Assembly (NCBI GenBank): GCA_048213135.1
Contig: PS015606.1
Span: 2,307 to 37,382 of the forward strand
DNA from: Reclinomonas americana ATCC 50394
Lineage: Eukaryota
DNA length: 35,076 nt
Reading direction: 5' to 3'
Under the pieces are notes generated by a model, which saw only the letters and a list, made by a program, of their open reading frames with translations, was not told the origin of the DNA and made no database searches. The stretch's first letter is position 1. Each line of letters begins with the position of its first letter. Below are positions 800 to 34,100 of this stretch, one piece after another. Position numbers and translations under genes: made by a program.

Positions 800-3700
800 A
801 TGAGTGGTGCCGCGGCGCATGAGAACAGCGATGACAGCAGCGACGGTGGTGGAGGAGACTCTTCGGGCGCGCCTCCTTCATTCGCCACTGCGGCAGCGTC
901 TGCCCGTGGAGGCCAAGGTGCGTTCATTTTCTCTTTGCAGTTCATTCTTCTCACTTACTGTACTTGTCTGCGCGATCGTGCAGCAGGCTCCACTCTTCTT
1001 GCCCCCAGCACTCCACTGTCGCACTCTGCCGTGATGCCCGAGTTCACCAGTGTGGTGAGTGGTGACTGCTGCACTGGGTGTCTCTGTGTGTCGTGGCGCC
1101 CGCCTTTTCGCGCCACCAGTGCGCAAAAGTTGTCGGTTGAGAAACTTATTTTTGGGCTGCGACTGCTGCACCTCTCCTCTCCGCCCATGTTGCTGCATAG
1201 GAGGTGGAATACATCGAACCCCGTTCACCTGCCGACATCAAGGCTGCCAGCGGTGGTGCCTCCACCGTGCATCGCACCGCTGTGCCAATTGATGAGCTCG
1301 GTCGTGGAGCCGGTCCGCTTCGCTCTCGCTCCCGCAGCGGCAGTCTGAGTTCGGGCACCTCGACCGGCAACAGCTCGCCGCTGCTGCAGGCTCTCAACCC
1401 GTTTGGAGCCGGCTACGCCACGGCGTCTGCGCCCAACGTATTCGCCGAGCTGCGGCAGGCGATTTCACTGGAACTGCGAGAGTACGACCCCGGTGTCGTG
1501 GCTCGGCAGACCTCAGTGCGCTTGACACCGGAGGAGCGCCTCAGTGTGGCTCGCTGCGCTGGCATTGTTGCGTTGTGTGTCTGCTTGTAACCACAGAGCA
1601 GTGTACTGATACTGCTGCTGCATGCTGCAGCAAGAGCACCTGCTGTCGGTGTTGGCCGTGGCCGAGAAATACGGCACGCGCATTTCTCGTGATCGGGCTG
1701 ACATTCAGGTGCGCAGCGTTCGCGCTTCTTCTTCTCCTTCGCAATACTCGTAGTATTCTGATGGCGCATGCAGGGCTTGACGTCGGCTGAGGCCGCCAAT
1801 CGCCTCGCCGCCAACGGTCCGAATCTGCTTACACCGCCCAAGCGAATCCACCCACTGTTGCGCCTTCTCCGCCGCGCTGTGCTTACATGACAATAATAGC
1901 AAGAATCCTTCTTCACTATCTGCTGCGCACGCAGGGTGTCGTTCCTCAAGTGCTGCACCGATTTGTTCAACCTGCTGCTGCTCGGTGCCGCCGTCATCAG
2001 CTTCCTGTTGATCATCACAGATCCAGGCCTGTCGGACAACGTTTCGCCTCTCACCTGTGATCTGCAAGTTCTCGTTGCACTGAACTTGCGAATTATTACT
2101 GCTGCAGTACATTCTCGGTGGCCTGCTGGTGTTTGTGGTGCTCTTCAATGCCACCATCGACTTTGTGCAACGCCGCAAATCGGAGCGCATCCTCGCTGGC
2201 TTTGCCAACATGCTACCGCCCGAGGCGACCGTAGTTCGCAACGGCGAACAGCAGCGTGTGCCTGCGGCGGGACTCGTCACTGGTGATGTGGTCATGGTGC
2301 GCCCGGGCGACAAGGTTCCGGCGGACATGCGCGTGATTGCCACTCGCGGTCTGAAAGTTCGCCGTCTGTCTTCCTCTTCTTTTTCCGTAGGACTTCGTTG
2401 TTGCGCTAACCCACACGGTGCGTGGAACAGGTAGATCACTCGTCGCTCACGGGTGAAGCTGAGCTGCAGACCCGCACGATTGTGACCATGACCGAGGTCA
2501 ATCCACTGGAGGCGAAGAACATTCTGTTCTACGGCACCAATGTGGTGATGGGAGAGGGTGAAGGTGAGAGTCATCGTCCATCGTGTACATGCTCTCCTTC
2601 ACTGTTGTAGACTGATCACTTGCTGCGCAGGCATCGTGATTCGCACTGGTGACAATACCGTACTCGGCAACATCAACAAGACAGTGTCGTCGGAGAAAGT
2701 GCGCTCGTCGCCAATGACTAGGGTACGCAGCGCAGCAGAGTACATGCACATCTCATACATCATCGTAACATGTATCTGTACCGGTGCAGGAAATCCACTC
2801 CCTGGTAATCAAGATCGGCATCATTGCTGGCATTGTCGCTGTTGTCTTTTTCATCATCGGCATCTTGCTCAGTGAGTAGTGCTTTGAATCCAACAGTTGT
2901 TGCACTGCACTGATTCAGCTGCATTGCAGAGTATTCGATTTCGGTGAACTTCCTCTTCTGTGTCGGCATCATTGTGGCATTGTTGCGTCGAGTCTCTATT
3001 CTGCAGCAGTGTGTGGCCATCCTTCTTCTTCATGGCTTATTGTTGTGCTTTCATGCAGCCTGCCGCAGGGACTGCCCTCCACTGTAATCGTTCAGTCTTT
3101 GTGTGCCACATGTCCCTTCACCACTGCCACCACCACTGTCACCACTGATTACCGCCATCGCAGATGTTGCTGACCATTGCCGCCGCCAACATGGCCAAGA
3201 AGAATGTGTTGGTGAAGAGCCTGCATGCTGTCGACACCCTCGGTGAGATCAATCAGTAGAGTGTTGCAGACTAATCACTGCTGATATGTGTGCATCCTCT
3301 CCACCACACAGGTGCCGTGACACTGCTGGCCTCCGACAAGACAGGTAAATGCGTGTGAAGAGTGGTAATGCGTCTCAGCGGCATGCTCATCCACTGCTGG
3401 CAGGCACACTGACGCAGAATCGCATGACTGTTGTCAATGCGTGGATCGACAACACAATGTACCGCGTTGTCCCTCCTGGACTGGAGGCGCCGCCTGGCGC
3501 AGTCCACATCTTCAGTCGCGAGTCGCCGAGCTCCGTGACGTTGGTGGAGGCCGCTCTGCTTTGCAATCGGTGAGTGCCGACGACCATCGATGGCGTGTCA
3601 GAAAAATGCTGACTGTTGTTGTAATTTCATGGCGGCAGTGCTCGTTGGGCACCAGTGGCGGACAGTGACGTGTCTGCTGTGGGTGGTATTCGCGAGCGTG

Positions 3701-6435
3701 CCATCCTCGGTGATGCAACAGACACGGGTCTCTTCCGCTTTGCCATCAACAACATGGAGTCGGAGGCCGAGGAACTGGAGGTGCTGCTCTGCATTCAGTG
3801 ATCGCATTGGTGACACAGTCGGTTTCATCGCTGACTCTCTGTTGTGCAGATACAACGTCGGTGCAAGCGTATCTTCGAGGTGCCATTCAGCTCGGAGACT
3901 AAGACGCACCTCATCATTGTGGATCGCGTTGACGACGGACGCCTGTTGATTATCAAGGTCGGTGCTCATTAGCAGTCCAGCAGCAATCAGTGCTGCCGCT
4001 ATCCTAACACTCATGTACGCATGCATGCAGGGAGCTCCCGAGCGTGTTCTTCGACGCTGCTCTCGCGCTCGTTTCAACGGTGGAGCAGAAGTTGACTTGG
4101 ACGATGCAGTGGCGGAGAATTTTGATCGTGCCTATCGCAACATGGCGAACCAGGGCCAGCGTGTTCTGGCGTTTGCCATGTTGCAGCTGTCGGGCGAGAT
4201 GGCGTCGGCAGACTGTCAGTTCACTCTTGACCCGCCGAACTACCCCGAGGTGAGTGGTCACTGCTATTCCATCAGAGGAGACTTGAGAATGATGAGTCTG
4301 ACTGAAAACATTGGTGTGTTCCACAGGATTCCTACGTGTTCCTTGGCCTTATCGGACTGGAAGTGAGTTACCTGGTTATCAAGGCACTTGCGCACTCGAT
4401 CTCTCACACGACTGCACAGGATCCACCCAAGCCAGGCGTTGCGGCCGCAGTGGAGACTGTTGCGTTGTCAAACAAACACAATGCATCAGTCATCGTCCAA
4501 CCTCAGCGCTCATTTAGTTTCCCACGCGTAGTGCCGTCGTGCCGGCATCCGCGTCATGATGGTGACTGGTGACCATCCGCTCACGGCGGAGGCCATTGGT
4601 CGCCAGGTCGGCATCATTCGCGGTTTGAAGCGAGAGGATGTGGCACGCACCCGCAACGTACCGGAGGAAGAAGTCCCCGAAGATGGCTACGACGCCGTGG
4701 TCATTCACGGCGACAAGATCGACACGCTCACCGACCACACCTGGCACAGTATCCTCAGCAAGTCGGAGGTCATCTTTGCCCGGTAAGTGTGAACAAACAC
4801 GAACATAATTGTTTCCAGTTTTTTCTCACACCTCCTTGTGTGCAGAACGTCGCCGGCGCACAAGCTGGAGATTGTCAAGCGTGCGCAGGAGTGGGGCCAT
4901 GTGGTTGGCGTCACTGGCGATGGTGTGAACGACTCACCAGCACTGAAAAAGGCCGACCTCGGCATCTCCATGGGCATCTCCGGCAGCGACGTGTCGAAGG
5001 AGGCCGCCTCCATGATCCTCATGGACGATAACTTTGCCACGGTGACCTTTGGCATTGCGGAAGGTAACGGAGCTGCAGATCGCGTACACATACATGTTTG
5101 CATGCATGCACCGGTACCGACACAAGCGTACACACGCAGGTCGCCTCATTTTCGAGAACCTGAAAAAGTCGATCAACTACACGCTGACCCACATCATCCC
5201 CGAGCTCATCGCCTTCCTCCTCTTCATCGCGTTTGCTCTTCCGCTTCCACTGTCGTCCTTGCTGGTGCTGTTCATCGATCTCGGCTCCGAATTGTGCCCA
5301 GGTCTGATCGTGAAGCATGCATCATGTTTGCAGTCAATTGTCATGTGTTCGCTTACCGTTGACACTCGCGTGTGCAGCTCTGTCGTTTGCGTTTGAGCCG
5401 CCGGAGGGCGAGCTGATGATCAAGTGCGTGGTGCTTGGATATTACTGTCTGTGTGGCTGATGTCTTGTATCATTCCTCATTCAAATACACCACCACCAGG
5501 CTGCCCCGCCGTCGAGTGGTTCCGCCGCCGGCGCCAGCGAGAGTGATCGAGCCTGGACGCTCGTTTGACGTCGAAGGTGGCCATCCCTCGGGAGGCTCTC
5601 CTGCCCTGCGTGCTGCAGGTGGTGGCGTGCAGCCGGCGCCCCCACCGCTCGTGGTGTTGTCGCGCATGGCCAGCTATCAGGCGCCACCCACGTTGCCAAA
5701 AATCGATCCGGTCGACATGCGATCCAGCGACGAGCGGCTGGTGGACACCAAGCTGCTGATCAACGCGTACTTGCAGATGGGCTTGTTTGAGACGCTCGGT
5801 TGTCTGGTGGTGTACTTTGTCGTGTTCTGGATTCACGGCATCAAGTCGGTCAAGGCGCTGTTCTTCACCGCCCAAGACTACTTTGCGTCCACCACGACAC
5901 TTGACTTTGTGTTTGAGGATCGCTCTTACGTTGCGCCGCCTTGCTGTTGCTTATCATGCGAACTGTATCATGCATGATCAGTCTCGATTCCACTCACCGC
6001 CAGTGATGTTAACAGTCTCCCGACGAGCAGCGCTGGATTCTGGCCTCGGCACAGTCGGCATACTACTTGACCCTCATCATGATGCAGTGGGCCAACATGT
6101 TTCTCTGCAAGGCGCGCTACGGCACCATCTCGCGTTCGGCATTCAAGTGAGCACACTTCCCACAAGACTGTTAACAAGCGCGTTTCCTCATTTCCCTTCA
6201 CTCGCACAGGAACCGCATGACGTACATCGGCATTGTCGTGTCCATTATTGTGGGCGTTATCATCGTGTACATGCCAGGCATCCAGCTGGTGGTCAAGTCG
6301 CAAATCGTATTCCCGCCGGTGCTCATCGGCTGCCTTCCGGTCATGGCAGTCATGATTCTGTACGATCAAGTCCGCAAGTGGGTCGTCGTTCGCACGGGCA
6401 TTCGCGGGTGTGCTGCCGAGTACTGGAGCTGGTGA
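800..6435 (+). CDS. P-type ATPase, Na+/K+ (P2C)-like alpha subunit, about 26 GT-AG introns
   Basis: Spliced exons give [42 protein letters not shown] (TGE), [16 protein letters not shown] (phosphorylation site, split by an intron at ~3344), [60 protein letters not shown] and IDLGSE. Stop at 6433-6435 after EYWSW. The ATG at 800 is inferred. Confidence 0.95.
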
Positions 6436-6653
6436 CCTGCTGTCAAGCATGCTCTCTTGTGCTCCACTCGAGAGTCTTCTTCTGTTTTCTGTATCCATGT
6501 TCTTCACCTCCCCTACGTACGCGCTCGATCTGCTCGATCAACGCCATTGAAGTGCGAAGCGCCTTGCTGATACTACACACATCACCTGGCTTCACGTTAA
6601 CAATGTGTTGTGGCTCTAAATTGCCCATGCAGTCGCGTTTGCGCCTGCTTGCG

Positions 6654-8146: not shown

Positions 8147-8511
8147 CCACGCCCGCGGGCCTGGCCACGCGCAAAAGCTGCTTGCTGCGTTCTTGTCCCA
8201 CAGAAATGCAAAGGCATCGTCGGCGTACACACGAGTACACGACAGGAGACTCACTGCACAGATGTCTCCTGGTCGGCTTGGGTGACGACAGCGTCGTGCA
8301 CGGGAATGCGAGACAGGCGACGTCGACACCTTCGCGATGGATATCAGACTGAATTGACGCACCACTCGCACCCACTTGCACCAACTGCCTTTTGCCTGAT
8401 TACACAGTACCCAACACTGTTGCGTGGCAGCTGCCAAAACATCGACAGACGGCTGTCAAAACACGACATGACGCAGCGACCGGACGAACACACACACCTT
8501 TACACTCCTCC

Positions 8512-11229
8512 ATGGAGCCACGGCGACGACCATTGGACACCGCGCCCGATCCTGATGTGGACGACGATGCCACCGCAGAGGAAGCCGCGTGCATGCGAGT
8601 GCCTAGCGTTCGCGGCTCGTGGGACTTGATTGGCGGAACTCCCCATCCGACGCCCACCGAGGAGGAGGATGCGGATTCAGAAGACGACGAGGCGCATGGG
8701 AGCTCCTCTCTGCGCGCTTCTCTCTCCGCCCCCGTGTACCGCTCCTCCCCTCCTGCGTGGTCGCCGTCCGCCTCCACCGCCACCGCAGTGGCGGCCGCCT
8801 CAGAGGCCGGCTTGGAGCTGCTGCCACCGCCACAAGTGCCCGGTGTGGTGCTGGAGGCGTACCAGGAGCAGAAGGGCCCGACGCACTACAACATGGCGAC
8901 GTCGAGTCGCGAGCGCGCAGCGGCGCAGATCAATGGCGTGCAGGAGTATGTTGTGTTGCCGCACCACACGCCAGGTGAGTGTGTGCGTGTGTGTGAGATT
9001 GTTCGGGCACTTTTTTTCTGGCAGCGACTTGCATTAACGAGTGCGCGTGCTTGTGTAGCGTGGCCGCGCATCGACGAGTTGCTAAGCAGAACCATCACGG
9101 ATGAGGCTGGCCTGCGTGTGCGTGCTGTGTGCTGCGTGTTTCTTGTCCGCCGGGTTCCATTGGTCAATATCTCTCTGTGTGTGTTGTGGCAGGCGTTTTA
9201 CCGTGAGCTGGATCCATCGTTGGCCTATGTGGGCGAGACGCTTGCCGAGTTTGTGAGCACGCAGATGACGGAGGAGGTTAGTGGCGTGTGTGTGCGTGTG
9301 TGTGTGTGTTCGGTGTCGTGTGTGAGCGACTGTGCATGACCACTCTTCCTGTCGTCGGCTTCTGCCAGGAACGTGAAACCTTCTATCATGGTACACTGAA
9401 GAGCATGATGGATTACGCGCGAGGCGGTCCGCTTCTCCTCCCGGCACACTTGCCGGTGCTGAGCATTGGGCGTGGTGCGATTGGCTGTTCCGTTGCAATG
9501 CTTCTTCCGCCCCCTCGCTCACTCGATGTGCCTGGGCGACGCAGATGTGGCCGTGACCATCTCGCAGCATCAGGCCGCCTGTCTGGTGGCGCAAATGGTG
9601 TTGTGTATCGCCAAGTTCGGGGACGTGCATCTGACAACATCGACTCGATATCCGAATTCTGGCATGCCAAGCCGCACGTTTGAGCGTCTCTTTGGTGGTG
9701 CGTGGTGCATGTGACACTCCGATCGGGAGCAAGAGAAAGAGACCGCGAGTTTAGTTCGCTCACCGTGCTTTGTGTACATGTGTGGCAGACGAGCTTCGAG
9801 GGTCGCGCGCCGGAAAGCTGCGTTGCCTGTTCAACTACTTTCTCCGCATCGTGGATCACGGTTGCGTTTGTTTGTTCTCTCTCTCTCTCTCTCACATACG
9901 CCGACAATGCCCACTAAGAACTCGCCCTGTTGTCCGCCACTTCTCAGTGTCCACTGGCAATCTCACATTCCACCGTCACGTGCTGCGTCCGGACGACGTT
10001 GTTGACTGGACTGCGTGTGAGACGCCAATGTTGCCAATGTGTGCCGTTTCTGATAGTATCGCGATCGAGGACTGCGAGCCTCCATGTCTGATGTGCGACT
10101 TTGCGAACCGCTACATTGGCGGTGGCGTGACTGGCGGGGTGCGTAAGAATGAGTGCTCTCACCCCACTTTTTGCGTTAAAGTAACTGTGGCGATTGCAGG
10201 GTTCCGTACAAGAGGAGATCACGTTTGTCATCAAGCCGGAGCTGCTTGTCGCGCTGTTGCTTGCGCCCACAATGCAGGAGAACGAGACGATCACAATGGT
10301 GTGCTTATCATGATTGTCTCAGCACGCGTGCGCATGTCTGAGAGAGTGCTGCTCACTCGCGCATATGACAGTACGGCGCCGAGCGCTACTCAAAATACCG
10401 CGGCTACGCGGCATCGTTTGAGTTTGCCGGCGATTTTGTGGACCCGGATGTGGGGACGTGAGTTATTCTTTCCGAAAAATGCATCATGTCTTCTTGTGTA
10501 TTTGCGGGTTCTGAGCGATCGATACGCACAGCGATACGTGCGGTCGTCGTCGCAGCTGGGTGGTGGCCATGGACGCATCGATGAATGCCCGAGGCAGTAC
10601 GGCACAGTTCCGCTACAAGAACATTCTTCGCGATCTCAACAAGGCCTACTGTGCCTTCCGTGTCGACCGATTGTTGGACACTGACGATCGGTTGACAGCC
10701 ATTGCCACTGGCAACTGGGGTACAGGCGTGTTTGGTGGCGACAAGGATCTCCGTTGTTTGCAGCAGTGGATGGCGGCGTCTCTCGCAGCTCGTCACGTTG
10801 CGTGCTTGTGTGTGAGGTTCATGTTTCGGTCGATTGGCAAGCAACTGATGTGCATGTGTGCAGTTGCGGTTCTGCACGTTTGGTGATCGCAACCTGGCAC
10901 TGCGTGTCGCCGAACTCGACCACGTGCTGCGCACCACCGAGGTGCACGTCAGCGTCAGTTGCGTGGCCATCTTGCTCTCTCTCGGTGCTTCGAATCTTCT
11001 CTCTCTCTCACACACACGCGCAGTGGAGGTTATCCGGTATCTGCACGACTACAAGGACTACCTCAAGCACTTCACCAAGGAGGCGGACAGACGGTCTGTG
11101 AAGCTGACCGAGGAGATGATGGAGGAGCACTACGGGAAGCACTTTTGCCCGGCAGTCGAGTACGTACGTCGGCGCATTACTGGACAGGCACTGTACACTG
11201 GCAACCCCAGTCGCTGCAGCACCATGTGA
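8512..11229 (+). CDS. PARG: Poly(ADP-ribose) glycohydrolase, canonical macrodomain PARG, about 11 introns
   Basis: Spliced catalytic signature DFANRYIGGGVTGG|GSVQEEITFVIKPE (GGG-x-QEE), plus KLRCLFNYF, GAERYSKYRGYA, VVAMDA, RDLNKAYCAF, ATGNWGTGVFGGD and QWMAAS. Confidence 0.93.
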
Positions 11230-13799: not shown

Positions 13800-13875
13800 A
13801 AACACAGCAGTGAAGCTTTTCGTTTGTCGCGGTCCTGCTGCAACCACAAAAAATTGTCACCATCGAGCGACGACA

Positions 13876-14360: not shown

Positions 14361-14400
14361 ACCATAATCTTTTTTTGTTTGTCTGAGAGAGAGCGAGAGA

Positions 14401-18000: not shown

Positions 18001-18953
18001 TGGTGTGTCCGCATGGTTCGGTGCGTCATGTGTGTTCTCCTCGAATGAATGCTCTCCCTGCAGGCACCACCACCACCACTAATGAGTGAAAAGACTGCGT
18101 GTACACAAGCGTGAGCAAGCACGACGCATGCGCAACAGATCGCCGCCGTCGTCGCCCTCCAGCGCCGCTCGCTGCGCCTCCTCCTCGCTCTCCCTCTCCA
18201 GTTCGCGAACATTCGCCATGTGCTCCTCTATCTCGGCCATGACTCGCACACCCTGCGCCGTCGTGTCCTCCTCCGCTTGCTCCAGATCGCCCTTCAGCTC
18301 CACATACATGGCACGCAGCGTGCCGGCCCGCTCGGCGGCATTAAAGTTGAGTGCCAGCATGCCCTGCGACGAAGGTGAGCCAACAGAGCAACAGGCGTCA
18401 ATAAGTATAGATGCAGACTTGAGCACCTTCATGTCGTTGACTCGCTTCGCCCAATCTGCGTGGTGATAAGCAGCTTGAGCGAAACGAGAGGAGAAAGAGA
18501 GGGAGACAGTGCGATGAAATGAACGCAACAAGTCGACATGGAGTACCGAGCGCCCTCTCTCCGCCCCTCCTCCTCCGCAAACTCACACGTGACGTCGTCC
18601 TCCATCGATCCCATTATGGTGGCCAGCTCCAACTCCACGCGCTCCCTGCCGATCCAAGTAAGCAGATGTGTGATGAGAAAGGAACCTCCACCAGCTGCAG
18701 TCGCACCTCTCCTCCTTCAGACGCGCATGCTCCATCAAATAGTCACGCTTGTGCCCATCAATGCGCGACTTTTGCTTGTTGCCCTTGACCACCGACTTGA
18801 GCTGGTGCAACTATACAACGAGTGGAAGGATTGAGTCTGAAATAGCTGACAAAAAAAGTGACCTCGCACTCCCACCTTCTCCTCCAGTCGCTGCGAGCCT
18901 TGCTTTGACCGCTCCAGCAGCGCCATGGCCTTGTCCACATCGTGCCCGCCCAT
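15023..18953 (-). CDS. CCDC148: CCDC148-like coiled-coil protein, about 8-9 introns, two N-gaps
   Basis: The C-terminus LDELRAQVAP...PERLLQPT...GYSEVQLLKDPRYKLVTRLGEAGLLHKPYAQQVF...NPRKDMLS resembles the CCDC148 C-terminus as I recall it. The internal segment RFIDRLSLEMPSHNKASIEEMLAWH is also consistent. The start ATG (MGGHDVDK) is inferred. Confidence 0.7.
15318..15458. other. Assembly gap (N)
   Basis: Run of N inside the CCDC148-like gene. Confidence 1.
15816..16287. other. Assembly gap (N)
   Basis: Run of N inside the CCDC148-like gene. Confidence 1.
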
Positions 18954-19344: not shown

Positions 19345-19920
19345 ATGGCCGGCGAGAAGTTGCGTCTCTGTCTGTGATGCTTGTGCGTTGTCCTTGTGTG
19401 CGCCTGTGGCGCTGTGTGTTCGCTCGTGTGCTGTGCGTGACATGTGCGCCGACATGTTTGCCAATGGCGGCCTCACGCTTGTCTCTTGACGCGCTGCAGG
19501 ACTGTGTCGACGCGTGGAGCGGGTGCGGGCGTGTCGCTCAACTCAGCCAAGAAGAACTTCCTGTCGTTCTACTCGGGCGAAGGCGAGGACTCAATGGGCT
19601 TCAAAGTGTTGCGTCTCTCGGCACACACAGCGGACGCTCTCCCTCTCCACACGCATGCACACACACGCACTCTATCCTCCGTTTCCGCACCCACTGCTCT
19701 TGTGTGTCTCGATGAGTGACGAGCGTGTGGACGGGGGCGTGCGCGCCATTTTCCGACGCACATCCCCCACGCGCGTTGTCTCCCGCCAACTCATATTCTC
19801 TCTCTCCCCCTTGTTTCTCCCTTTGTGACTTTTAGGCCGCCGCAATTCGTGCTGATTGGCAGCATCATCTTTGTGGTGATTGTGTTCATCCTGCACATTC
19901 TCGGCAAGTTGGTCGGATAA
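19345..19920 (+). CDS. SEC61B: Sec61 translocon beta subunit; exons 19345-19358, 19500-19607, 19836-19920
   Basis: Spliced product MAGEKTVSTRGAGAGVSLNSAKKNFLSFYSGEGEDSMGFKVPPQFVLIGSIIFVVIVFILHILGKLVG* matches the Sec61beta/Sbh1 pattern (FY..DS.G.KV.P..VL..S..F...V..LHI.GK). The ORF track misses it because of the introns. Confidence 0.9.
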
Positions 19921-20048
19921 TCATGGACTGCAGACGGGATTCGGCTCGCCTGTCGGCACGCGGGAATGAAGGCTGCGAGGCAGTGTTATAGACACCACCC
20001 TGTTTTGTGTTTCCTTGTTTTCTTCACATCTTACTTGGGTTCATCGCT

Positions 20049-22928: not shown

Positions 22929-23092
22929 GCAGACGACGACGACGGACGGGAAGGACGGAGCGACAGAGCGCGAGCGGGGCAAGAGGACGCCGAAAGACAC
23001 TTCGCGGTTTTCCTTCTCAAATCATTTCATTGCAAAACACAAACAACAACACAACACAGAAGCTAGCTATGTAATACAAAGACAACGGGAGC

Positions 23093-26000
23093 TCACTGAA
23101 TCTTGGGACGCAGGATGCCAGTGAATCTGCACAACACAACACACAAATGAGTCGTCGGATCGTCGATCGTCCATGTCGCCGCATGGGGTGCACGCAACTT
23201 GTCCGGCAGCATCTCAAAGTAGCGGTCCATGGCCTCGCGGAAGCGCTTCTTGTACGACCGCGGATTCATGACGGTCGGCGCACCTTTGCCACCGCCAATG
23301 ATACCACTGCTCTTCACAATGTGTTCCAGTTGCTTGTCCCACGTGTACTGGCGCAGGTAGTCTGCACGAAAAGGGCACACATTGAGCTGCGAGCGAGCGC
23401 AGCGAGTGGACGAGCAGGTGGAACATAGCGCGCACCGATAATGCCGACCACCAGCTGCTGTCGCTTCTCATCGATGCCCACCAGCAACGAGTAGTCCATG
23501 ACATTGACTTTGGAGAGGAAGAGGGTGTCGTTGAAGATGGATAGACTCATGAGCGCCTTGCTGGCCTCGTTCATGGCCAGCGGATTATCCTCGTAGATGA
23601 CTGCACGCATCGACTCACGGTGAGCAGATGGAGCGGGAGCGCGCGCACACACATGCTCACGCACACTCCAACATGTTCTCGTCGAGTTGCACGGCGTCGG
23701 ACTTGGTCTGGTAGCGATTGCGCAACGAACCCTTGAGATCGAACGTCTGCACAACAGCAAAAGCACATGAGTTCCACGCTCGTACGCATCCCAACGACAT
23801 TGTACATCACCTGTGCAATCTGCCGATCGTAGAACAAGTTCTCCATCACCACCAGATATTTTTTCACGCTCCGACCGGCTGTCGCGTACTTGACTCTGTA
23901 CAAGCCGAGGACCTTGACCAGCACGGTGGGCAACTGCGCAGCACAGCATATACGAGGTGTGAGTGCGATGTACGTGCGAGCAGACGCAGGGATACAGGCG
24001 GAACTTGGTGGAAGAACGCCTTGGTGAGGTACTCAAAGTACGACAGGCCAAAGTCGAGGAACGACACGAGCTCCACACGCGACACGGACTTGATGACGAA
24101 GCGGTCATCTGCAACCTACGCGTAAGCAAAAGAAGAAAGGAAAAAAGGAACGCAGTCACAGAGAGTGGCATTTGCCGCACCCCATGTTTTCACAAATGTT
24201 GAGCCAGACTTGCCGCCGGTCGGCAGCCATCTTGCGCATCGCAGGAGACTCTCCTCAAAGAGCACGTCACCGCGGCTACAATCCCACCATAGACGACATG
24301 AGGAACGGCGCACGACCGTAGCCAAGGGAATTCACAGCCACAGCGCAACTGAATGTACTTGCGAAGGGCGGCAAACTGCAGCGGGAAATAGACGTGCACG
24401 GAGAAAGCGTCCTTCTTGGTGACGGGGTCCACCACGGCTGTGCGGGAAGCAGCGATTTCAATGATAAGCAGACGCGGAAGGCTACCCTTATTGTCGAACT
24501 ACAGCGACACGCAACAGTGGCTAAACGGTGTCTTGTCCGGGTTCAGCAACAGACTCTCCATGGCTGTGTTAAGACGGTCACGCACACAAAAAGAAGAAAA
24601 CGGGACGAGTACAACGCAACTGACGTGATCCGCGGGGTGTGCCGCGTTCACTGGTTCCACTGTCCTCTCGTAGTCTCGAGAACTGCACGGGGGAGGCGGT
24701 GAGCTGCATGCACGGCGGTGTTTCGCAATCCATATTCTTTCACGAACGTGAGCGTGTGAGCAATAAACGACGACGGCTCCTCGTGGTGCACCGGCACCAA
24801 GCCCAACAATCCCTCCGGCAAGTCCCAGTTGAACGACAGCTCCCTGTGAGACGAAGGAAGTTTGAGCAAGGGCTGATAAAGTGCCACATAGTAGCGACGC
24901 AACTGTGGGAGCGACACACTCGGGAACTTGATCTTTTTCAGCATGTGCGACCGGCGTTTCATGTCTCGTTCGCGCTCGGCGGCCGCTGTGCGTGCGTTCG
25001 AAAGAGAGGACCCGTTGAGTGAGCAATCACAAACGCAGCCGCCGTCAAGTGAACAAGAGAATAACCAACCGAGACGTGCAGCCGCTCCACGAGCCGCACT
25101 GCCCGGCAGCGCTGTCGCTGACGGCACTGCACCAGTGGACACCGATCCACTCTGCATCACAACCACCATCCTCGTCAGCACGCCGATACACGGCAAGCAA
25201 ACACGCTCTCACATGGACGAACCATTCCAGAAACCGCAATCTCCACACCATCCAGCAGCGGCTCCGAAGCCACGTCGGGGAGCACCGGTGGCTGCGTATC
25301 AGAGCAAGCAAAAACATGTCAGCGTCCGCACGCACACACACACTCGTGCAGTGCACACAAACGCACATCCTCACGCGCGCCCTCCTGCAATCACACGAGC
25401 AATCAATGAGAATGGGACATCGCAGAACACGATTCCTTCGTCAACAAACCTCAAAGTCGGCATACGCAGAAATGGTCATGGCGGCAGCACCCTCGGATTC
25501 ATCGGCCAGTCCTTCCCGTTCACCAAACCTGTCACTCTGCAACGATGCCAAGTAGTCCTGCATGGAGATGGCCGACTCGCCACCAATCTCCAGCTTGATT
25601 TGCACGCCAGCCGACAGGGCATTCTCAATCATCGTGGGCGACGTGGACAGGATCACCGGGTCGCCGGCATTCAACGTCAGCTGAACGAACGAGTGGTTCC
25701 AGTGATGAATGTACACGCCCAAAAGTCTGCAACCACACGAGGTCAGCGGAGGCAACGATGCGCACCGCACACAAACAAACACACATAGCTCACCTCAACA
25801 GTCGACCCATCGACATGAGGTCGTTGCCTTGTGAGCGCGCTTGCCGAATGATGGCGAGCATGTCCACGGTGTGCGACGGGATGAGGAGCTTCAGCGCCTC
25901 GAGTGTGTCCTTGCAGTGCTCGTACGGCTCAGACGCACTCATACGCTCCACCATGGCGTACACGCGCGACAAGATCTTCTCGCAGAAGAAGAGAAGTGTC

Positions 26001-27870
26001 AACAAACGTAACACAGACAGGCGAGCTTCGACAAACTGCACACACACACACACACACCTGCTCGGCAATGATGAACAGCGAATTCCACTTCTCCTCACGC
26101 TTGTGATGGTGCGTTCGCATGTTGTAGTCGAGAACTGCCGGTGGCACAATGACGCGGCACAGCGACACCTCCTCGTACTCGAAACGCGCAATCTGCAAGT
26201 ACATACACCGCGAGTGAGAGGTGCGCACATGAAATTACCGTTTCTCACTTCCACAGCACGCAACAATGTTGCCCCTGGCAAAATGGCGTGTCACGTGCCG
26301 ATGCGCCACCTTGTTCTCGGCCCATGTGCGACAGTAGACGGTGGTGTTGTAGAAGAGGTTCTCCAAAAACTTGCCAAACGAATACTGCAGGCTGCGATCG
26401 GAGAGTTTGTTGACTGGCGTCACCTGACGACCCGTGTCGCGGCACGTGCCCCAAGTCACAATGTCGCGACCATCCGTCAGCTTCTTCTGCTCTCACAACA
26501 CACGAAAGTGAGTCGACATCCATCCACAACATGAGGTCGCGTGGCACGAACCGCAGAACGGCGCACTGAGATCGACACTCGACCCGATCCGTGTGCGTAC
26601 GACTTGGTGTGCTGACAAATCTCGTCGAGCGTCTCCTCGTCAAAGCACTTGTGGTTCAAGTAGGTCTCCAACGTCAAGTCGTTCTCCGAGTAATAAGCAA
26701 TCTCAATAACTTCCGGACACTCGTCCAGCTCCAGTCGATCGCGCAACTCGCTGTGGTGCACAAGAAGCAAGGGCAATGAGTATTAAGCACAACGATGCAA
26801 CACAAGCTTAAAAACACACACCTTCCGTCCGACACTGCGCGTTGTCGGTACAAGACGACCAGTTGCTGGTGATGGAACACCGATGGCATGTACACTCGGA
26901 AGCCGGCTGTTGAACGCGGATACAGATCCACATTGTCGTTCGCCGACAAGAACGGCGAGGGCAAGAAGAGACCTTTGGTGGGAATTGGAATGCGAATGTT
27001 TGGCGAAATGCTCATCAAATAGTCCGTCGGCACCTCGCCTGATGCGTGCACACGCACAGAAGCGAAATCAGCGACGCGACACGCACACGTGCTGTGATAA
27101 AGGAGGCAGACACACACTCACCCATTTCGAGTGTGACCTCGCGATCTGTAATGGCCTCAAACGACGGGATTCGCGTGTGTACCGAAGCAGCCGGACTGCG
27201 AGCCGACGACTGCGAACCCTGCCCGTCGTCGTCCTCTGCCGTGTCGCCGCCAAACGCAGTGTCATCGGCGAGCGAGTCATGTGAGCCTTGCCGCACCAAC
27301 TCCGCCGACACCTCCTCCACCGCCTGCGACACCAGCGGCACGACGACCGAGTCGCGACCATCGGCCTTCCCGTCGGCCTCCACATCGTCAAGCTAATGGC
27401 ACGATAGTCATTCCGTGTGAGTCGTAGGGGGGGAGCCGCCAATGCAAAAGTGCACACACCGCATTCGATCCGAACACGAAGAGCGGGACGGCACTGTTCT
27501 CGTAAAAGAGATACTCGGTCTCCAGCGACAGGTTGTAGGCCGCGTAAATGGCAAACTGCATGCAGTGCGGCAGTCAGTCCACATGTGCACGACGAGCAGC
27601 TTGGTGGACGAGACGCAACGCGGAGCAGACGCTTGACAGCACGCAGAGTCTCGTGGTCCGCGCCACGCAGGTTGATGGTGCACCCGAGATCAGATGGGCA
27701 GCCTGCACGCATCAATCGATCAGTGGATGCGATGGCGAGAGAACGCAAAAGGAATATGACAGCCAAGAACGCACCATCAAAGTACAGCAGCGACTTGCGG
27801 CCCCACTCGCCAGATTCGACCTTGAGACGGAATTCACTGCAGGTGCCCAGTTGCGGATTGCGCAAGGCAT

Positions 27871-27904
<34 letters not shown>

Positions 27905-30900
27905 GAGAGAGAGAGGTCAACAAAAGTGATTACACGACGAGTGTCATCGCGAGATCATACCGGCCGACGGCAGGATTTCGCCCTCCGTCAGGCGTGCCAC
28001 TCGCTCCATTGCCAAGCCCTTGGTGTTGAGGATGAGCGTGACACCCGCTTCCAGGAACAAGTCCTGCATGTCGTGATTGTCAGCAATCACTGTTGACTGG
28101 CGCGCACAGATCGCGCCACCTTCACCGCACCTGTGCAATGCGTGACACGGATTTCTCCACAATCACAATGTCGGGCTTGAAGCTCAGAATACGGTTGACG
28201 GTGCGCTTGATGTGCTCGCCCTCCTGCGCAATCACGCGTAAGAATGTGCACAAACGGCAACTCAGACAAGACAGGGTTGTTTGTGACACACACGTACCTG
28301 CTGCAGCAGAATGTCGAATGAGGAGACGCGATCCTCGGTGCGCTCGTATCTGTGTGCATGATTGTGGTGAGACAATAGGCCAACAAGATGCGTGCGGAGT
28401 GGAAACGCACTCCAGCGCCGACTCGAGGAGCAGAATGCGCGGGTTGCGAATGTGGCTCCGCATGCGCTTGTTCGCAATGGTGCGGTCAAGCACCGCACCT
28501 GACACGTACTCGCAGTCCTCGAGGCGCATGTGCGGAATGCAGTGAATCTGCATGTGCGAGCGGGCATTCATTCAGTAATCTGTAATGATGACCACACTAC
28601 CAGGAGAATGTGTGTCACATACCTTGACGTACGCAGTAATGTCCATCTTGTCGCCATCGTCAACGCGCGGAAACACGTGCTGGACGGCCTGGTACGAGAG
28701 CGCAAGGATCACATCTGCGGACGTTCCACGAGTGAGCGACAAACAAATACGAGTGCCACGCGAGAAACATAGCAATAAGCGCACCAATCCACTGCGTGTC
28801 AAGGCCCGCCTCGGCAACAATCTGTGACACCAGACGATGGAAGTGCTGTGACGAGCAGTTCTCGAGAAGTACGCGATGGCGCATGCTGTCTTCCTCCGAC
28901 TCTGTTGAAATGTAGATAATAAGCAAGGCTGGAGGAGACACACACAGAGTGCACGCGCACATAGACACACCTCGCAGCTCCGACAGGAACTGCACGGAAG
29001 TTGACTGGCCCAATACCAGCTGATGCTTTCGCGTGCCAAGGAAGCCGCGCAACCCGGCAGTTGCAGCCGTACCTGCACCATGAATGCGCGAGCAAGTTGG
29101 CGACACGAACAAGCATGAACGAAGTGAGGAATCCACGCACCAGTGGGCGACGACGCAATGAGATGTTCCACATGTCGCGAGGCCGAGGCCACAGAGGACT
29201 CCACATTCACGGTCGCCACCTGCACAACCACCACCATCAGCACAAACGGAGAGCAGGTGGCGAGAAAACAACGCAACAGCTTCGGGAACTGCCGTGAGGT
29301 CTGTTTCAGACTTGCGCTCGGTGCCCCACCTGCATCGCCACAGAAAAAGGTGAGAAACAACATTGGCAGGTGCGCGGCAGCAGGACGATCACGCAACTCA
29401 GCCGAGTTGAACTTGTCCGAGTTGCCTGACTCGACCGTGGGAAGACCGACACGCTGGGGAAGATGAGTTGAGTCACAGCATGAAACACGAGAGTGCGTCT
29501 CGCTGTTAAGCAACACACCTCTTCTTGATCGGAAGCCGGTGGAACTGTGCCGTCGGCATCTGTCGGGGACAGGAGGCGACAACCGTCAGTATCAGGTTGA
29601 GCATTACACAAGCGCGCCAACTCGGGGCACACACAACTCGGCAGCACAATGTCAGAGTCCGGAATCAATGCCAGTGTCTCGTCGCGATCCAGCGTCGTCT
29701 TGTTTCCCGACCCACCGAGGTGACTGATGATGGGCGTCGTTCCGGAGAGATTCCCGCCGTCTTCCGACCCCTGCACGTGCGTGCGCCGCAAGTGGATCTT
29801 GCGGTGGCCGCCGCTGAACTCTTCCTCCTCTGCGCAGCACTGCGAGTAAGCAAGTGGAATTCGCAGAGCCCGTGCAGCTGACTGGACAAACCTCCACCTT
29901 CATCCTGCGTCTCAAAAGAGTCAATCATGCGGCGCCTGATGACGGCGAGTGAGTGAGTGGGAGCACAGGGGGAAACGTGGCAAAGGTATGATGAATACCT
30001 GCTGGCATTGTTTGCCGGTTCCTCCGATAATCTCGCCTCCGAGTGCGCACTGCTGGTCGGTGACGTGACGGTGGTGGCGACAGGTGCGGTCGACGAGTCG
30101 TGCGACATGAGCAGCTGAAAGCAGTACGAACAGACGCGAATGTTGCCCTGGTAGCCGTACGGAATGCCACTGATAAACACATTGCTGCACTTGCCGCAAA
30201 AGATCTGACCGCACACACGGCAGTGGTGCTTGCGCTTGAACACGCTAAACTGCGCGTGACACTCGTAGCAGTTCCGCGCGCTCTCGTCCGGCATCCAATA
30301 CTCCTTCATCTTTTGCTTCGAGCCCAGCGCCTTGAGCCGCTCAATCACCTCCGACATTGGCGTTCGACTGTCGCGTTCCGTCGGCACACGCGACGGCCGC
30401 CTCGTCTGGTCCTCCACCAGCAACGAGCCCTTACTGCCACCAAAAGCACATCAGTGCGCTGTGGGAGACAGGGAGCGCGAGCATGCAAAGATTGACGCAA
30501 CGCATCCAGCGACGACAGTGTTCCACTCCGATGCCGTGTTCTCGCTGTCACGCAAACACATGCATGCCCAACGAGTAAGCACTGTTCTCGCGTCTGTCTG
30601 TCTCTCACTCTCTCTCACACACACACACCTGCATTTGGTGCATCCGGCGACGCTCCTGCCGCCGCCGCTGCCCCTCCTGGCCCGGACGCTGCGGCTGTCG
30701 GCGTCATAGTCGGCGACTGTGCCGACTGCGCAGAGAGCGGAGTCACATTGGAGGTGTGCAGCGGAGCCAGTCTCGCCATCAAAGTCGGAGTCGTGGTGGT
30801 GGTCTCTGTGTCTTCATCACCGCCTCCTCCTCCGCCTCCGCCACCACCAGAGCCGCCTCCAGCACTGCTGATGTCGTCTTTGGAGAAGAAGCTGTGTGCA

Positions 30901-31069
30901 CAATGAGTGAGCGAGTGTGTGTGCGCGAGTGTCAGAGAGAGAGAGACGGAGGATACCCTTTGAGACGAGACAGCAACCCGCCCTTCTTCTGTTGCTTCTG
31001 TTTGCGCTCCTCGCGTGCAATCAGGTCAGAGAAGTCGGTGAGACCGCCGTTATCGCCGGCGTCGGCCAT
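23093..31069 (-). CDS. FAB1: Fab1/PIKfyve phosphatidylinositol-3-phosphate 5-kinase, about 38 introns
   Basis: FYVE domain (WMPDESARNCYEC...RKHHCRVCGQIFC...RVC), CCT/Cpn60-like domain (MDITAYVK|IHCIP...KRMRSHIRNPRILLL), CCR region (SFGKFLE), EEPSSFIA, and PIPK domain (GGKSGSTF, DLKGSLRNR, NDTLFLSKVNVMDYSLLVG, DYLRQYTWDKQLE, PRSYKKRFREAMDRYF). No DEP domain was recognised. Confidence 0.95.
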
Positions 31070-31170
31070 GGAATGAGCACACACTCCGTGAGAGTGCAAC
31101 GAAAGAATTGCGTCTGTGACAATCGCATTCACGGCGAGCCCAATTGTCATACCCACACACACACACGACG
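31070..31170. promoter_or_regulatory. Putative 101-bp bidirectional promoter/5'UTR region between FAB1 and ESF1
   Basis: Head-to-head ATGs at 31069(-) and 31171(+). Inverted TGACAAT (31117-31123) / ATTGTCA (31143-31149). Confidence 0.5.
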
Positions 31171-34100
31171 ATGAGCGAGCGGCGAAAGAGCAAGGCGGCT
31201 GAGAAGGCGCCGAGCAGTGGCCAGAAGACGAAGAAGAAGTTGAGCAAGCAGCAAGCGATACAACGAGGTGAGAGAAAAGTGGTGCTTGCGCGGCCATGTG
31301 CACATTCACATCACCAACTTTTTTCGTGTGCAGATTTGGAAGCGCCGATCATTCGTGATGAGCGATTTGCGAGGATTCACACGGATCCGAGGTTTGCAGA
31401 GCGACCGGCGAGTCGAGCGCACTTGCAAAAGCTGGTGATTGATCCGCGTTTCCGGGCGGTGTTGGAGGACGAGCGCTTTGTGTCGAAGAGTTGCGTCATC
31501 ACTCTCGTGATTGGGGGGAAAGAGTGGTGGTTGTTGTTGATGATGGTGGTGTGGCTTGGTGTAGCTCGCGTGGACAAGTATGGTCGCGTGGTGGACAACG
31601 ACAAGGCGCGGAAGCGAATGGAAAAGTACTACACGATTGGCGAAGAGGAAGTGGAGAAGAAGGAGGAGGAGGAGGAGGAAGACGAGGAAGAGCAGCAGCA
31701 GCCAGAGGATGAGGACGAGGACGGGGAAGAGTTGGATGCTGATGCGCTGAAGCGGGCACGTTATGAGGGATTCGTGGGCGGCGACAGCGATGACTCGTCG
31801 TCGACGTCGGAGGCTGAGTTGTTTGCCGACGATGTCGACAGCGAAGATGAGGATGAGAGCGATTTGTGGAAGGTTCTGGAGGAGGATATCCCGCACGGTG
31901 ATGAGACCACGCGATTGGCCGTCGTCAACTGCGACTGGGATCAGATCAAGGTACTGTTGGTGTTGGGGGATGACCGCTGTCGCTCGCCTGCTGATCGAGA
32001 CTCGTGGTGGTGCGGTGGTGCGCAGGCCAGCGATCTGTTCATGGTCTTTTACAGTGTGTTGAAGGATCCTTCGTCGCTGCTGTCGGTCACAGTCTACCCT
32101 TCCGAGTTTGGTTTGCAGCGGATGGCCGAGGCGAGTAACCCCCACCTTCACCCTTACCCGGCCTGTCGCCAGTGCCTCCTGCTCACGCTGTTGTGTGCTG
32201 CTGCAACTGCAGGAGACTGTCAAGGGCCCGCTGATCAGCAGCAAGTCGAAGAAGGCACCGAGCACCGTCGTCACACAAGAGTTGCATTGCGGTCTCTGGT
32301 GGTTTTCTGAGTGTCCTCTGCTGCTCACGTCGGTGTGTGGGACAGGGCACTGAACCGAGCGGGTGCCAAGGGCAAAGAGAGCGATGACGACGATGATGCG
32401 AACGACAGCGAAGGCGAGGATCACGTGGAACGAGCACGCAGTGATGACGGAGACAGCGAAGACGATGATGATGATGACGACGAGGAGATGGAGGTGGATG
32501 AGGAGGATGATCGCAGAAAGAGAAGAGGCAGTGGCCGCGGCAACAACAGTGGTTCAGATTTCAACCCGGTGAAGCTGCGCAAGTACGAGTTGGACAAGCT
32601 GAGGTTGGTGTTGCATGGGCATTTGCCAAAGAGTGGGCTTGCTTCTCATGCACACGCCCGTGCTGTTAGGTACTATTTTGCCATTGCCGAGTTCACCACC
32701 GTCTCCGCCGCGCGACAAGTGTACTCCGAGTGTGATGGCTCGGAGCTGGAGAAGACCGGCAACATTCTTGATCTGCGCTACGTGCCAGTCGGCACCACTT
32801 TCAAGCAGCCCGCGCGGTGCGTAGGCTTGCCTGATTGATTCGTGTGTGTGATTGCACCAGCTGCTGACCCCACCCCCCGCTGTCGTTCTAGTGACACGAG
32901 CACATCGCCAGTGACAAACTACAAGCCGCTGGACTTCCACACGGCGGCGTTGCAAGACAGCACTGTTGAGCTGACGTGGGATCGCGACGACCCACTGCGC
33001 AGCACGGTGCTCAGGAAGCGGTTCACGGATGAAGACATGCGGGACATTGATTTCAATGCGTATATCGCCTCGTCGGAATCGTCGGAGGGGGATGATGAAG
33101 AGGACGGCGTGAAGGAGGATGACGACGGTGGCAATGCAGCAGTAGCAGCTTCGAAAAGCCGGGAGCGCAACGAAAAGATGTTGAAGAAAAGGAGAAAGGG
33201 CAAGGATGAGAAGGACAAGGCTGTTGCGTGTGACTGTCGAAAACCGGAGCGTGTTCGCTGCCATGCTTTGTCGACTCAATGTGTGTCGTGCAGGCAAAGA
33301 TGGAGGCGGAGCGCAAGAAGTACCAGGCGCTGCTTGCCAGACTGGCCAACGACGACGCCTACGATGCGTTTGCCGACGGCAATGAGGAGGACTTGAAGCA
33401 GATGGATGGGCAGCATGATACGGAAGATCAGCAGCACGATGAAGAGGAGGAGCCGGCGGACAAGTTTAGCGAGCGTGAGTTCAAGGTGGTGTCCGGCATG
33501 GACGATCTGGAGGAGCGGCTGCTGAAAAAGGCTCAGACCGGCACTCTTGGCAAGACGGAGGATACGCGCACGGTGTGGGAAAAGTACTTGGCTAGACGCT
33601 CTGAGAAACGCAAGGATAAGAAAGAAGAGCGACGTTCTCGAGTGGCTGTGCTGCGGGCTGGCGGGCAGGNNNNNNNNNNNNNNNNNNNNNNNNNNNNNNN
33701 NNNNNNNNNNNNNNNNNNNNNNNNNNNNNNNNNNNNNNNNNNNNNNNNNNNNNNNNNNNNNNNNNNNNNNNNNNNNNNNNNNNNNNNNNNNNNNNNNNNN
33801 NNNNNNNNNNNNNNNNNNNNNNNNNNNNNNNNNNNNNNNNNNNNNNNNNNNNNNNNNNNNNNNNNNNNNNNNNNNNNNNNNNNNNNNNNNNNNNNNNNNN
33901 NNNNNNNNNNNNNNNNNNNNNNNNNNNNNNNNNNNNNNNNNNNNNNNNNNNNNNNNNNNNNTCGACAAGGATGGCGACGATAGCGGCGGCGACAAGGGCG
34001 CTGTTGACTCGGAGGAGGAGGCGTTGCTGCGATCGGTGGCCGACGATCCCTTCTTCAAGGACGAACTCGCCGAACAGGGCTTCACCGTCGCCGCTGACGA

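Follow-up and report, generated by a model that had tools for sequence, protein, structure and literature searches.

GTTGCG(T) as a second class of 5' splice site in a window of the Reclinomonas americana genome and its possible recognition in a displaced U1 register

About a fifth of the introns in a 35,076-nucleotide stretch of DNA from Reclinomonas americana ATCC 50394 (contig PS015606.1, positions 2,307 to 37,382; the whole of this stretch is referred to below as the window) begin with the hexamer GTTGCG, which is mostly extended to GTTGCGT. This motif is very probably a genuine, abundant and discrete class of ordinary U2-type GT-AG 5' splice sites. The choice of 5' splice sites is usually explained by pairing to the near-invariant 5' arm of the U1 small nuclear RNA (snRNA), an arm that could hardly bind GTTGCGT at all. 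The class stands beside ordinary donors in the same genes and makes up 17-24% of them, compared with the 5.1% of human sites that are projected to use any bulged or asymmetric-loop register. The distribution of its conserved bases suggests that it is probably recognised in a register displaced by one base. The account that best covers the evidence as a whole is that of a genuine donor class on which U1 would dock one base downstream by means of an altered arm, and it may be given about an even chance.

Frequency of GTTGCG among the introns of the window

A purpose-written protein-to-genome spliced aligner, whose sole splice demand was GT or GC at the start and AG at the end of an intron, was run with 14-20 homologues per gene, and introns that collected at least half of the homologue votes are termed homology-voted (n = 47). 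A donor-blind ab initio parser combined a 3-periodic Markov coding model with an acceptor matrix and an intron-length prior and scored donors as GT or GC only. Trained on the P-type ATPase gene alone, this parser placed 42 introns in the PIKfyve gene, nine of which start with GTTGCG. After retraining it was run on the whole window and gave 101 introns in seven gene regions, in agreement with the 105-110 claimed in the initial annotation, and 20 of these start with GTTGCG; 28 further predictions that were low-scoring or strand-ambiguous are left out of the counts (129 predicted, 101 counted). A second pass, the position weight matrix (PWM) parse, relied on a two-component donor model trained on the 47 voted introns, of which it recovered 42, and it found 24 GTTGCG donors among 99 introns. 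The curated set (n = 101) was assembled from the voted introns, less the GC-donor alternative 9707-9788 and the contested 24313-24249; introns from the PWM pass close the gaps, and the acceptor of Sec61beta was set by eye. Its introns begin with GT in 100 cases and with GC in one, and all 101 end in AG. A parser based on codon usage only recovered 16 of the 21 known ATPase introns at first and 8 thereafter, drifted during self-training and was replaced. In a knock-out test each donor was forbidden in turn, the gene was re-parsed and the homologue scores were compared.

GTTGCG opens 8/47 of the homology-voted introns (17%), 20/101 of the donor-blind introns and 24/101 of the curated introns (23/101 if the site at 24349 is rejected), in line with the share of about 20% put forward initially. 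It is the commonest donor hexamer of the curated set, with 24 occurrences compared to 12 for GTGCGT, 8 for GTGTGT and 7 for GTGAGT, and its one-base neighbours occur between zero and three times each. An independent-position model, by which the initial annotation had proposed to judge the class, predicts 0.29 GTTGCG among the 44 homology-voted GT donors and 1.31 among the 100 curated ones, where 8 and 24 are observed respectively.

The hexamer occurs 52 times in the window, 29 times on the + strand and 23 times on the - strand. The heptamer GTTGCGT is found 25 times, compared with 8.43 +/- 3.23 in 100 dinucleotide-preserving shuffles, none of which reaches 25, and 20 of the 25 heptamers coincide with curated donors. 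In the seven gene regions (24 kb) 20 copies lie on the sense strand and one on the antisense strand, while the related GTTGAGT is found four times on the antisense strand and never on the sense strand. The other five GTTGCGT heptamers (311, 8419, 17815 and 22012 on the + strand and 14115 on the - strand) are without a convincing acceptor at the usual distance; the one at 8419 lies 93 nucleotides (nt) upstream of the PARG start codon with a weak acceptor 58 nt further on, and could belong to an intron in the 5' untranslated region. At the unused sense-strand hexamers at 4438 and 2400 and, on the - strand, at 23726, 26747 and 29053, the next base is C or G (GTTGCGGC, GTTGCGCA, GTTGCGCG, GTTGCGCT). 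T mostly follows the hexamers that are used, and the two contested sites described below both read GTTGCGC.

The initial annotation had listed 21 introns starting with GTTGCG in six genes, namely those of the P-type ATPase, PARG, a coiled-coil protein, Sec61beta, PIKfyve/Fab1 and ESF1. All 21 positions do read GTTGCG on the strand given, 18 of them continue with T, and the observation holds with two sites contested. Homology confirms eight of the 21, and the support for 11 comes only from reading frame and ab initio parsing. The donor-blind parser picked 18 of them, missing 29277, 30501 and 31490, and the PWM parser picked all 21; at 16 of them a retained intron would disrupt the frame or introduce a stop codon. 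The parses also yielded three GTTGCG donors beyond the list, at 1567 (+), 18136 (-) and 24903 (-). In the knock-out test the homologues clearly prefer the site at 1857, 2982, 4459, 9861, 10797, 26264, 27619 and 31490 and moderately prefer it at 1567, 10958, 23198 and 24515, and are neutral or slightly against it at 24620, 24903, 29277, 29397, 30501 and 33223, all of which lie in poorly conserved stretches.

Properties of the donor class

T is found at +3 in 13 of the 47 homology-voted donors, and five of the 13 are not GTTGCG but GTTTCG, GTTCGC, GTTCAG, GTTCCG and GTTGGT. Among homology-voted donors G stands at +6 in 11/13 with T at +3 and in 6/31 with another base there, whereas G stands at +5 in 2/13 and 26/31 and at -1 in 2/13 and 25/31, respectively. 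Each of these three contrasts has a p value below 1e-4, and the curated set behaves in the same way. A second class of donors with its conserved G at +6 instead of +5, as proposed initially, is borne out by these donors.

The accompanying description of the class as the normal donor moved by one base fits in part: the G is displaced and the preference for G at -1 is gone, but the two classes differ in the base that precedes the G. In GTTGNG donors the middle base is C in 24 cases and T in one, whereas in GTGNG donors it is C in 20, A in 13, T in 10 and G in one (p = 1.6e-5 in the curated set, 8e-5 in the donor-blind set and 0.03 in the homology-voted set). GCG is the only flavour to exist in displaced form, and the class should be given specifically as GTTGCGT. 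In the exons that precede the 24 GTTGCG donors the base at -1 is G in only one (p = 0.006), T in 11 (p = 0.014) and A in 8, and C stands at -2 in 11.

At their other end the introns of this class are like the rest. Their median length is 72.5 nt compared to 70 nt for the others, their acceptors are GCAG or ACAG as in other introns, and a CT[CG]AY (CTCAY-like) branch motif is found at similar rates in all classes (14/24, 11/14 and 38/63), which points to the same 3' machinery. GTTGCG introns occur in all three phases.

The introns of the window are dense and uniform overall, with 41 in the PIKfyve gene of about 1,700 residues, and in the curated set they have a median length of 71 nt and a 5th-95th percentile range of 59-87 nt. 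Curated introns end in CAG (89/101), TAG (9) or AAG (3). CTCAC, CTCAT and GCTCA are enriched in their last 45 nt, with CTCAC in 25 tails and 5 heads and CTCAT in 17 tails and no head, and CTCAY is likely to be the branch-site consensus judging from this distribution. (GT)n/(TG)n microsatellites lie within introns (9286 and 8975 on the + strand, 27960 and 26057 on the - strand, and others), often right at GTGTGT donors, where the exact donor is therefore ambiguous in steps of 2 nt.

Pairing with U1 and a probable displaced register

Nearest-neighbour duplex energies were calculated for the segment from -3 to +9 of each donor, folded with the textbook U1 5' end AUACUUACCUG. The mean energy is -0.71 kcal/mol for GTTGCG donors, -6.75 kcal/mol for the other donors, 57/63 of which fold in the canonical register, and -2.5 kcal/mol for random GT sites. 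The initial annotation had pointed to the shifted or bulged pairing with U1 that is known from rare human atypical donors and had suggested shifted-register recognition, a variant U1 or U6 snRNA or a helper factor; human-style shifted pairing to an unchanged U1 does not account for the class, since GTTGCG pairs with the textbook arm more weakly than a random GT site does. Stronger pairing in the shifted than in the canonical register is obtained from hypothetical arms with G at position 5 only, and not from the standard 5' end. The textbook arm is unable to hold GUUGCGU in any register, and an altered U1 5' arm is therefore predicted.

When 256 arms varied at positions 3-6 were ranked by how well they separate donors from random GT sites, the textbook arm came 57th, ACGU(AC), which is of the Mastigamoeba type, 4th and ACGC(AC) 13th. 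With G at arm position 5, the fold of GUUGCGU has exactly the +1 shifted register and an energy of -5 to -9 kcal/mol; that of GUUGAGU remains weak. In this fold U+3 to U+7 lie on arm positions 3-7 and G+1 lies on C9, with -1 and -2 facing U10 and G11. The preference for G at -1 would be lost because the shifted register puts G+1 in its place. If the exon-side preference moved with the register, G should be missing at -1, and C and A would be expected at -2 and -1; the scarcity of G (1/24) at -1 and the C (11/24) at -2 fit this, but -1 is T in 11 donors and A in only 8.

It is proposed that U1 docks one base downstream of its usual position, so that G+1 would face the base that normally pairs with -1G, U+2 would be mismatched and U+3 to U+7 would form the helix; the later steps involving U6, U5 and Prp8 would still place the cut at the only GU. 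Of the possible changes in the U1 arm, the likeliest would place a G across from the C, giving for instance ACGUAC or ACGCAC. The helix of five contiguous pairs would then be sufficiently strong, and the lack of a displaced form for donors other than GCG would be explained; a G at arm position 5 would account at once for the shift of the G, for the restriction of the middle base to C, for the lost preference for -1G and for the C at -2. As the UGCGU block is the same in G|UGCGU, the commonest ordinary donor, and in GU|UGCGU, the two donors may be read as one recognition module in two registers. To judge from the base patterns, recognition in the displaced register is probable, whereas its attribution to an altered arm of the main U1 can be put forward only tentatively. 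The wider proposal that splicing in this organism routinely uses one snRNA arm in two fixed registers, through either a changed U1 or two U1 paralogues, is similarly possible but falls short of an even chance.

Several points weigh against displaced docking on an altered arm. The splice junctions come from protein homology, reading frame and signals and not from RNA, the curated count of 24 depends in part on a donor model that was itself trained on the homology-voted set, and two of the 21 listed sites are contested by homology with a further five undecided in the knock-out test. The duplex energies leave out pseudouridines and U1 proteins, and the scan of arms is a ranking on 100 sites and no measurement. 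A G-bearing arm leaves the enrichment of T at -1 unexplained, and indeed no U1 pairing scheme that was tried explains it; nor does such an arm explain why G at -1 is avoided beyond neutrality. A compensation test, in which donors with C at +4 should need less pairing with the exon, gave a trend only (A at -2 in 10/25 compared to 22/34). Finally, Thecamonas trahens and five Mamiellales (GYGCGY) prefer C at +4 with a standard U1 arm, as stated in the accessible part of Roy and Bowser (bioRxiv 10.1101/2022.06.08.495308), so that a preference for C need not mean an altered arm.

Alternative explanations

The discreteness of the class, which is stringent over seven positions (24 GTTGCG compared to 0-3 for its neighbours and no GTTGAGT on the sense strand), would also suit a dedicated second U1 or U1-like snRNA with an arm ...ACGCAAC... 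fully complementary to GUUGCGU, while the main U1 would read the GTG and GTA donors; this would be a likeness of the U11/U12 system on a small scale. The CGCA(AC) arm, which is complementary to GUUGCG, came 2nd of 256 in the scan with -8.7 kcal/mol on GTTGCG sites, and the lost preference for AG on the exon side would fit a different particle. However, an arm that continues with the usual CCUG should keep -1G favoured, and -1G is instead depleted. The homology-confirmed donors GTTTCG, GTTCCG and GTTCAG have nothing but the G at +6 in common with the class and would be a poor fit to a dedicated arm, and acceptors, lengths and branch-like motifs are alike between the classes. A second U1 is thus considered unlikely. 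If on the other hand the arm is standard, its pairing with the class is essentially nil and something else must act: the motif would then be read mainly by a protein that binds (U)GUUGCGU, such as U1C or a Luc7-like or SR-like factor, or be defined independently of U1 by U6, U5 and Prp8. The standard U1 of Thecamonas and the Mamiellales mentioned above speaks for an unchanged arm, and the T at -1 could belong to a protein-binding site, but the displaced G at +6, the T at +7 and the C at -2 correspond to contacts of U1 and the window points to no candidate factor, which leaves this explanation rather improbable.

It may also be asked whether the boundary itself is misplaced, with the exon running through GTT and a GC-AG intron starting three bases downstream (...GTT|GCGT...) in an unchanged frame. 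Such a shift is always frame-neutral and is the next-best parse at seven sites when the GT donor is forbidden, and one GC-AG intron does exist in ESF1 at 32131 (13/20 votes). As GC donors, however, the sites would read GCGTNN without any consensus, their +5 being G, C or T, and the extra residue worsens the homologue scores at 1857 (15/16), 26264 (14/14), 5930 (12/16), 24515 (10/14) and 23198 (7 compared to 1). The knock-out scores reject the downstream boundary at conserved junctions, and as a general explanation it is very improbable. Scarcely credible is the view that the motif is no splice signal and owes its frequency to chance or composition, in a genome that is rich in GC and GT, or to the shared end of a recently spread introner. 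Some algae and fungi are known to have introners that bring splice sites of their own. None of the 100 shuffles reaches the observed count, the strand bias is 20 to 1 and 20 of the 25 heptamers stand at curated donors. An all-against-all comparison of the 101 introns gave 94 matches at E<0.01, the best 20 of which are all (GT)n matches between non-GTT introns, and the 21 listed introns compared by eye have nothing in common beyond +7; on this partial evidence, the best 20 of 94 matches and the comparison by eye, an introner origin was rejected. A U12-type identity was likewise rejected, because GTTGCGT differs from the minor-type donor RTATCCTT. One candidate intron near the N-terminal end of PIKfyve, 30892-30956 (-), starts with GTATCCTC like a U12 donor, but a clear TCCTTAAC-like branch site is missing from it, and the PWM parse has a different donor here.

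Support for individual introns

The ATPase gene contains five candidate GTTGCG introns on the + strand. The intron at 1857..1934 (GTTGCGCC) received 16/17 votes, its retention would add three in-frame stops, and it is one of the voted introns whose removal leaves the ATPase exons as an open frame of 769 amino acids (aa). Two further introns, at 2982..3058 (GTTGCGTC; length not a multiple of three) and 4459..4531 (GTTGCGTT; all 16 homologues score worse without it), received 17/17 votes each and correspond to the junctions VAF|LPQGL and AVET|CRRAGI. These had been described initially as pinned by protein conservation, and they stand together with GNI|IARFEY (14/14) and KRLLR|FAIYAAYNL (12/14) in PIKfyve, whereas LPDK|FTG in the same gene drew only 1/14 direct votes. 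The intron at 1567..1630 (GTTGCGTT) in the N-terminal region of the ATPase is found by both parses, its acceptor has 8/17 votes, and without it 10 homologues score worse and 3 better with 3 ties. The candidate at 5930..6015 (GTTGCGCC) is contested: both parses contain it, and the homologues are split between 5909-6015 (7/16), 5930 (4) and the GC donor at 5933 (4), with one tie.

In the PARG gene (+) the introns at 9861..9947 (GTTGCGTT) and 10797..10863 (GTTGCGTG) each received 15/16 votes and are preferred by 16/16 homologues in the knock-out test. A third, at 10958..11023 (GTTGCGTG) in the C-terminal part, is in both parses and improves the scores of 10 homologues and worsens those of 3, with 3 ties; it is in frame and stop-free and therefore rests on signals and weak homology. 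The coiled-coil gene (-), for which no homologues are available, contains two introns supported by both parses, at 18456..18529 (GTTGCGTT), the length of which is not a multiple of three, and at 18058..18136 (GTTGCGCA), the retention of which would add a stop.

The Sec61beta gene (+) has two GTTGCG introns. The first (19359..19499, GTTGCGTC) is 141 nt long, joins the ATG exon (MAGE) to the open frame and would add two stops if retained. The second (19608..19835, GTTGCGTC, GFKV|PPQFVL) is 228 nt long and is followed by an exon that matches the family, aligning from its second residue with positions 20-41 of 41 of the Pfam Sec61_beta profile and with residues 72-93 of human Sec61beta. The 28-aa exon upstream of the second intron has no PDB or Pfam match on its own, and the acceptor, set by eye, is the TTTTAG that ends at 19835, while both ab initio parses chose 19933. 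The only support that these two introns appear to have is the match of the second exon to the family profile from position 20 onward.

In PIKfyve (-) homology confirms the GTTGCG introns at 26193..26264 (GTTGCGTG, GNI|IARFEY; knock-out 14/14) and 27556..27619 (GTTGCGTC, KRLLR|FAIYAAYNL; knock-out 13/14). The last intron of the gene, at 23127..23198 (GTTGCGTG, LPDK|FTG), is in both parses, and 7 homologues score better with it and 1 worse, with 6 ties; the intron at 24438..24515 (GTTGCGTG) is likewise in both, adds a stop if retained and is preferred by 10 homologues to 4. Both parses also contain 24564..24620 (GTTGCGTT), which is in frame and stop-free in a poorly conserved stretch where homologues lean 9 to 5 towards retention. 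The second contested candidate, 24276..24349 (GTTGCGCT), is in both parses with the homologues mostly against it: 11/14 score better with an intron at 24313-24249 and an exon that reads through the motif, although this rival has a GAG acceptor and GAG ends none of the 101 curated introns. The first donor-blind parse and the PWM parse agree on 24844..24903 (GTTGCGTC), for which the retrained donor-blind parse chose 24915 and the knock-out test gave 6 to 8, and on 29220..29277 (GTTGCGTT), in place of which the retrained parse took 29289 (GTTCCCGA), 12 nt upstream in the same frame. For the latter, as for 29330..29397 (GTTGCGTG; both parses, length not a multiple of three), the knock-out test gave 2 homologues with the site, 2 against and 10 ties. 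The intron at 30434..30501 (GTTGCGTC) in the N-terminal part is in the PWM parse only (knock-out 0 with, 1 against, 13 ties) and requires an upstream donor at 30628 (cagGTGTGT), while the donor-blind parse chose 30496/30624.

In ESF1 (+) the intron at 31490..31564 (GTTGCGTC) received 17/20 votes and is preferred by 19/20 homologues; it is in frame and stop-free, so that the donor-blind parser read through it. It shares these features with the intron at 31951-32025 (20/20 votes), and both were revealed by homology only. The second GTTGCG intron of this gene, at 33223..33293 (GTTGCGTG), lies in a low-complexity region, is in both parses and has a length that is not a multiple of three; 8 homologues score better with it and 6 worse, with 6 ties. 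The sole GC donor of the curated set belongs to the ESF1 intron at 32131-32212 (GCGAGTAA...CAG).

The voted donors that have T at +3 without being GTTGCG are found in three genes. The ATPase contains GTTTCGCC (2041..2107, +; 16/17 votes) and GTTCAGTC (3090..3163, +; 17/17), both with G at +6, as well as GTTCGCCG (2357..2430, +; 16/17). PIKfyve contains GTTCCGCC (23934..24004, -; 13/14), again with G at +6, and ESF1 contains GTTGGTGT (32604..32669, +; 20/20), which has G at +5.

Gene content of the window

The window is a piece of a eukaryotic scaffold with about 57% G+C and five N gaps. Homologues and Pfam matches identify the genes of a P-type (Na/K-like) ATPase at about 830-6435 (+), PARG at 8512-11229 (+), PIKfyve/Fab1 at 31069-23093 (-) and ESF1 at 31171-34828 (+), and also a WD40-like gene on the - strand between those of the ATPase and PARG. 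The repeats of the WD40-like gene are encoded by a 724-nt exon (7126-7849, -), which none of the counts includes. At 11.5-15.3 kb there are one or two poorly defined genes, the coiled-coil gene occupies 16295-18953 (-), and Sec61beta, recognised by its Pfam and homologue match, starts at 19345 (+). The 3' part of Sec61beta (19345-19917, +) is overlapped by a long low-complexity open frame on the opposite strand (19672-21131, -), and strand and gene content are ambiguous between 19.7 and 22.3 kb. No snRNA gene reached the Rfam gathering score in the window, and at E<=1 just two sub-threshold microRNA-like matches were obtained.

None of the window's proteins is present in a collection of 5.8 billion proteins. 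The best matches of the conserved exons are 56-69% identical and belong to chytrid and mucoromycote fungi and to a transcript of Diphylleia rotans; the top protein match is 67% identical. Among metagenome contigs of the Joint Genome Institute (JGI) seven loci matched, all at no more than 41% identity, and a close relative was not found there.

Implications

Should the displaced register be confirmed, it would be the first case in which shifted-register recognition of 5' splice sites, a curiosity in human genes, serves as a mainstream mechanism. The genome as a whole would then have a bimodal donor code of G|UGCGU and GU|UGCGU, with the displaced form as its most frequent single donor, and it would provide a second, independent example of co-evolution between U1 and donors, this time in an intron-rich genome. 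It would offer a natural system for studying the uncoupling of register from cleavage site between U1 and U6, how snRNA arms and thousands of introns co-evolve without loss of introns, and what reads position -1 once it is unpaired. With T at +3 in 13/47 voted donors, a gene finder that has learned GTRNGT donors would get about a quarter to a third of this genome's introns wrong.

Comparison with known splicing systems

Among the top-ranked matches in open-access texts nothing relevant was found on GTTGCG or GTTGCGT as a donor motif, and the open-access literature on aphelid genomes and intron density yielded nothing that bears on donors. Shifted-register 5' splice sites of human genes were reportedly described by Roca and Krainer in 2009. 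They appear as reference 10 and in Figure 1B of Tan et al. (2016, Nucleic Acids Research, PMC4856993), as far as the available part of that article goes. The window class resembles these sites in that GU is followed by U, the consensus is displaced by one base, G+1 takes the pairing place of -1G and the cut is made at the GU. It is unlike them in that one heptamer with the core GCGU makes up 17-24% of the donors, and the better pairing in the shifted register that defines the human sites fails here, where even random GT sites pair better with the standard arm than the class does.

Registers with a bulged nucleotide at +3 or +2 are covered by reference 16 and Figure 1C of the same article, within the part available (Tan et al. 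2016, PMC4856993), and GUUGCGU can indeed be written as GUGCGU with one extra U looped out. A bulge would keep G+1 on C8 and -1G on C9, however, so that -1G would be expected to be preferred, and only 1/24 donors have it; moreover, the folds obtained with G-bearing arms take the shifted form. U12-type introns are also a second discrete class beside a main one, but they are characterised by their RTATCCTT donor and a branch site of their own, whereas GTTGCGT introns share acceptor, length and branch-like motif with the others and are far more frequent than the introns of any minor system.

The precedents speak partly for and partly against a changed U1. In the accessible part of Roy and Bowser (bioRxiv 10.1101/2022.06.08.495308), Mastigamoeba balamuthi has a candidate U1 arm ACGUAC and prefers GUGCGC donors, and Entamoeba has an arm AACAAAC and GUUUGU donors. 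The norm is U at +3 in Entamoeba, as in the window class, and C at +4 in Mastigamoeba, and in these organisms the atypical donor is matched by a changed U1 arm according to that text. Unlike in the window, where two discrete classes occur in the same intron-dense genes, each of them is described there as having one transformed consensus, in Entamoeba with few introns, and the G of the Entamoeba donor is at +5 and not at +6. Thecamonas and the Mamiellales resemble the window in its ordinary class, which is dominated by donors of the GTGCGT type (12 GTGCGT and 8 GTGCG[ACG] of 101 curated donors), but the window has in addition a second class with T at +3, of which the available sections of the same preprint make no mention for those lineages (bioRxiv 10.1101/2022.06.08.495308).

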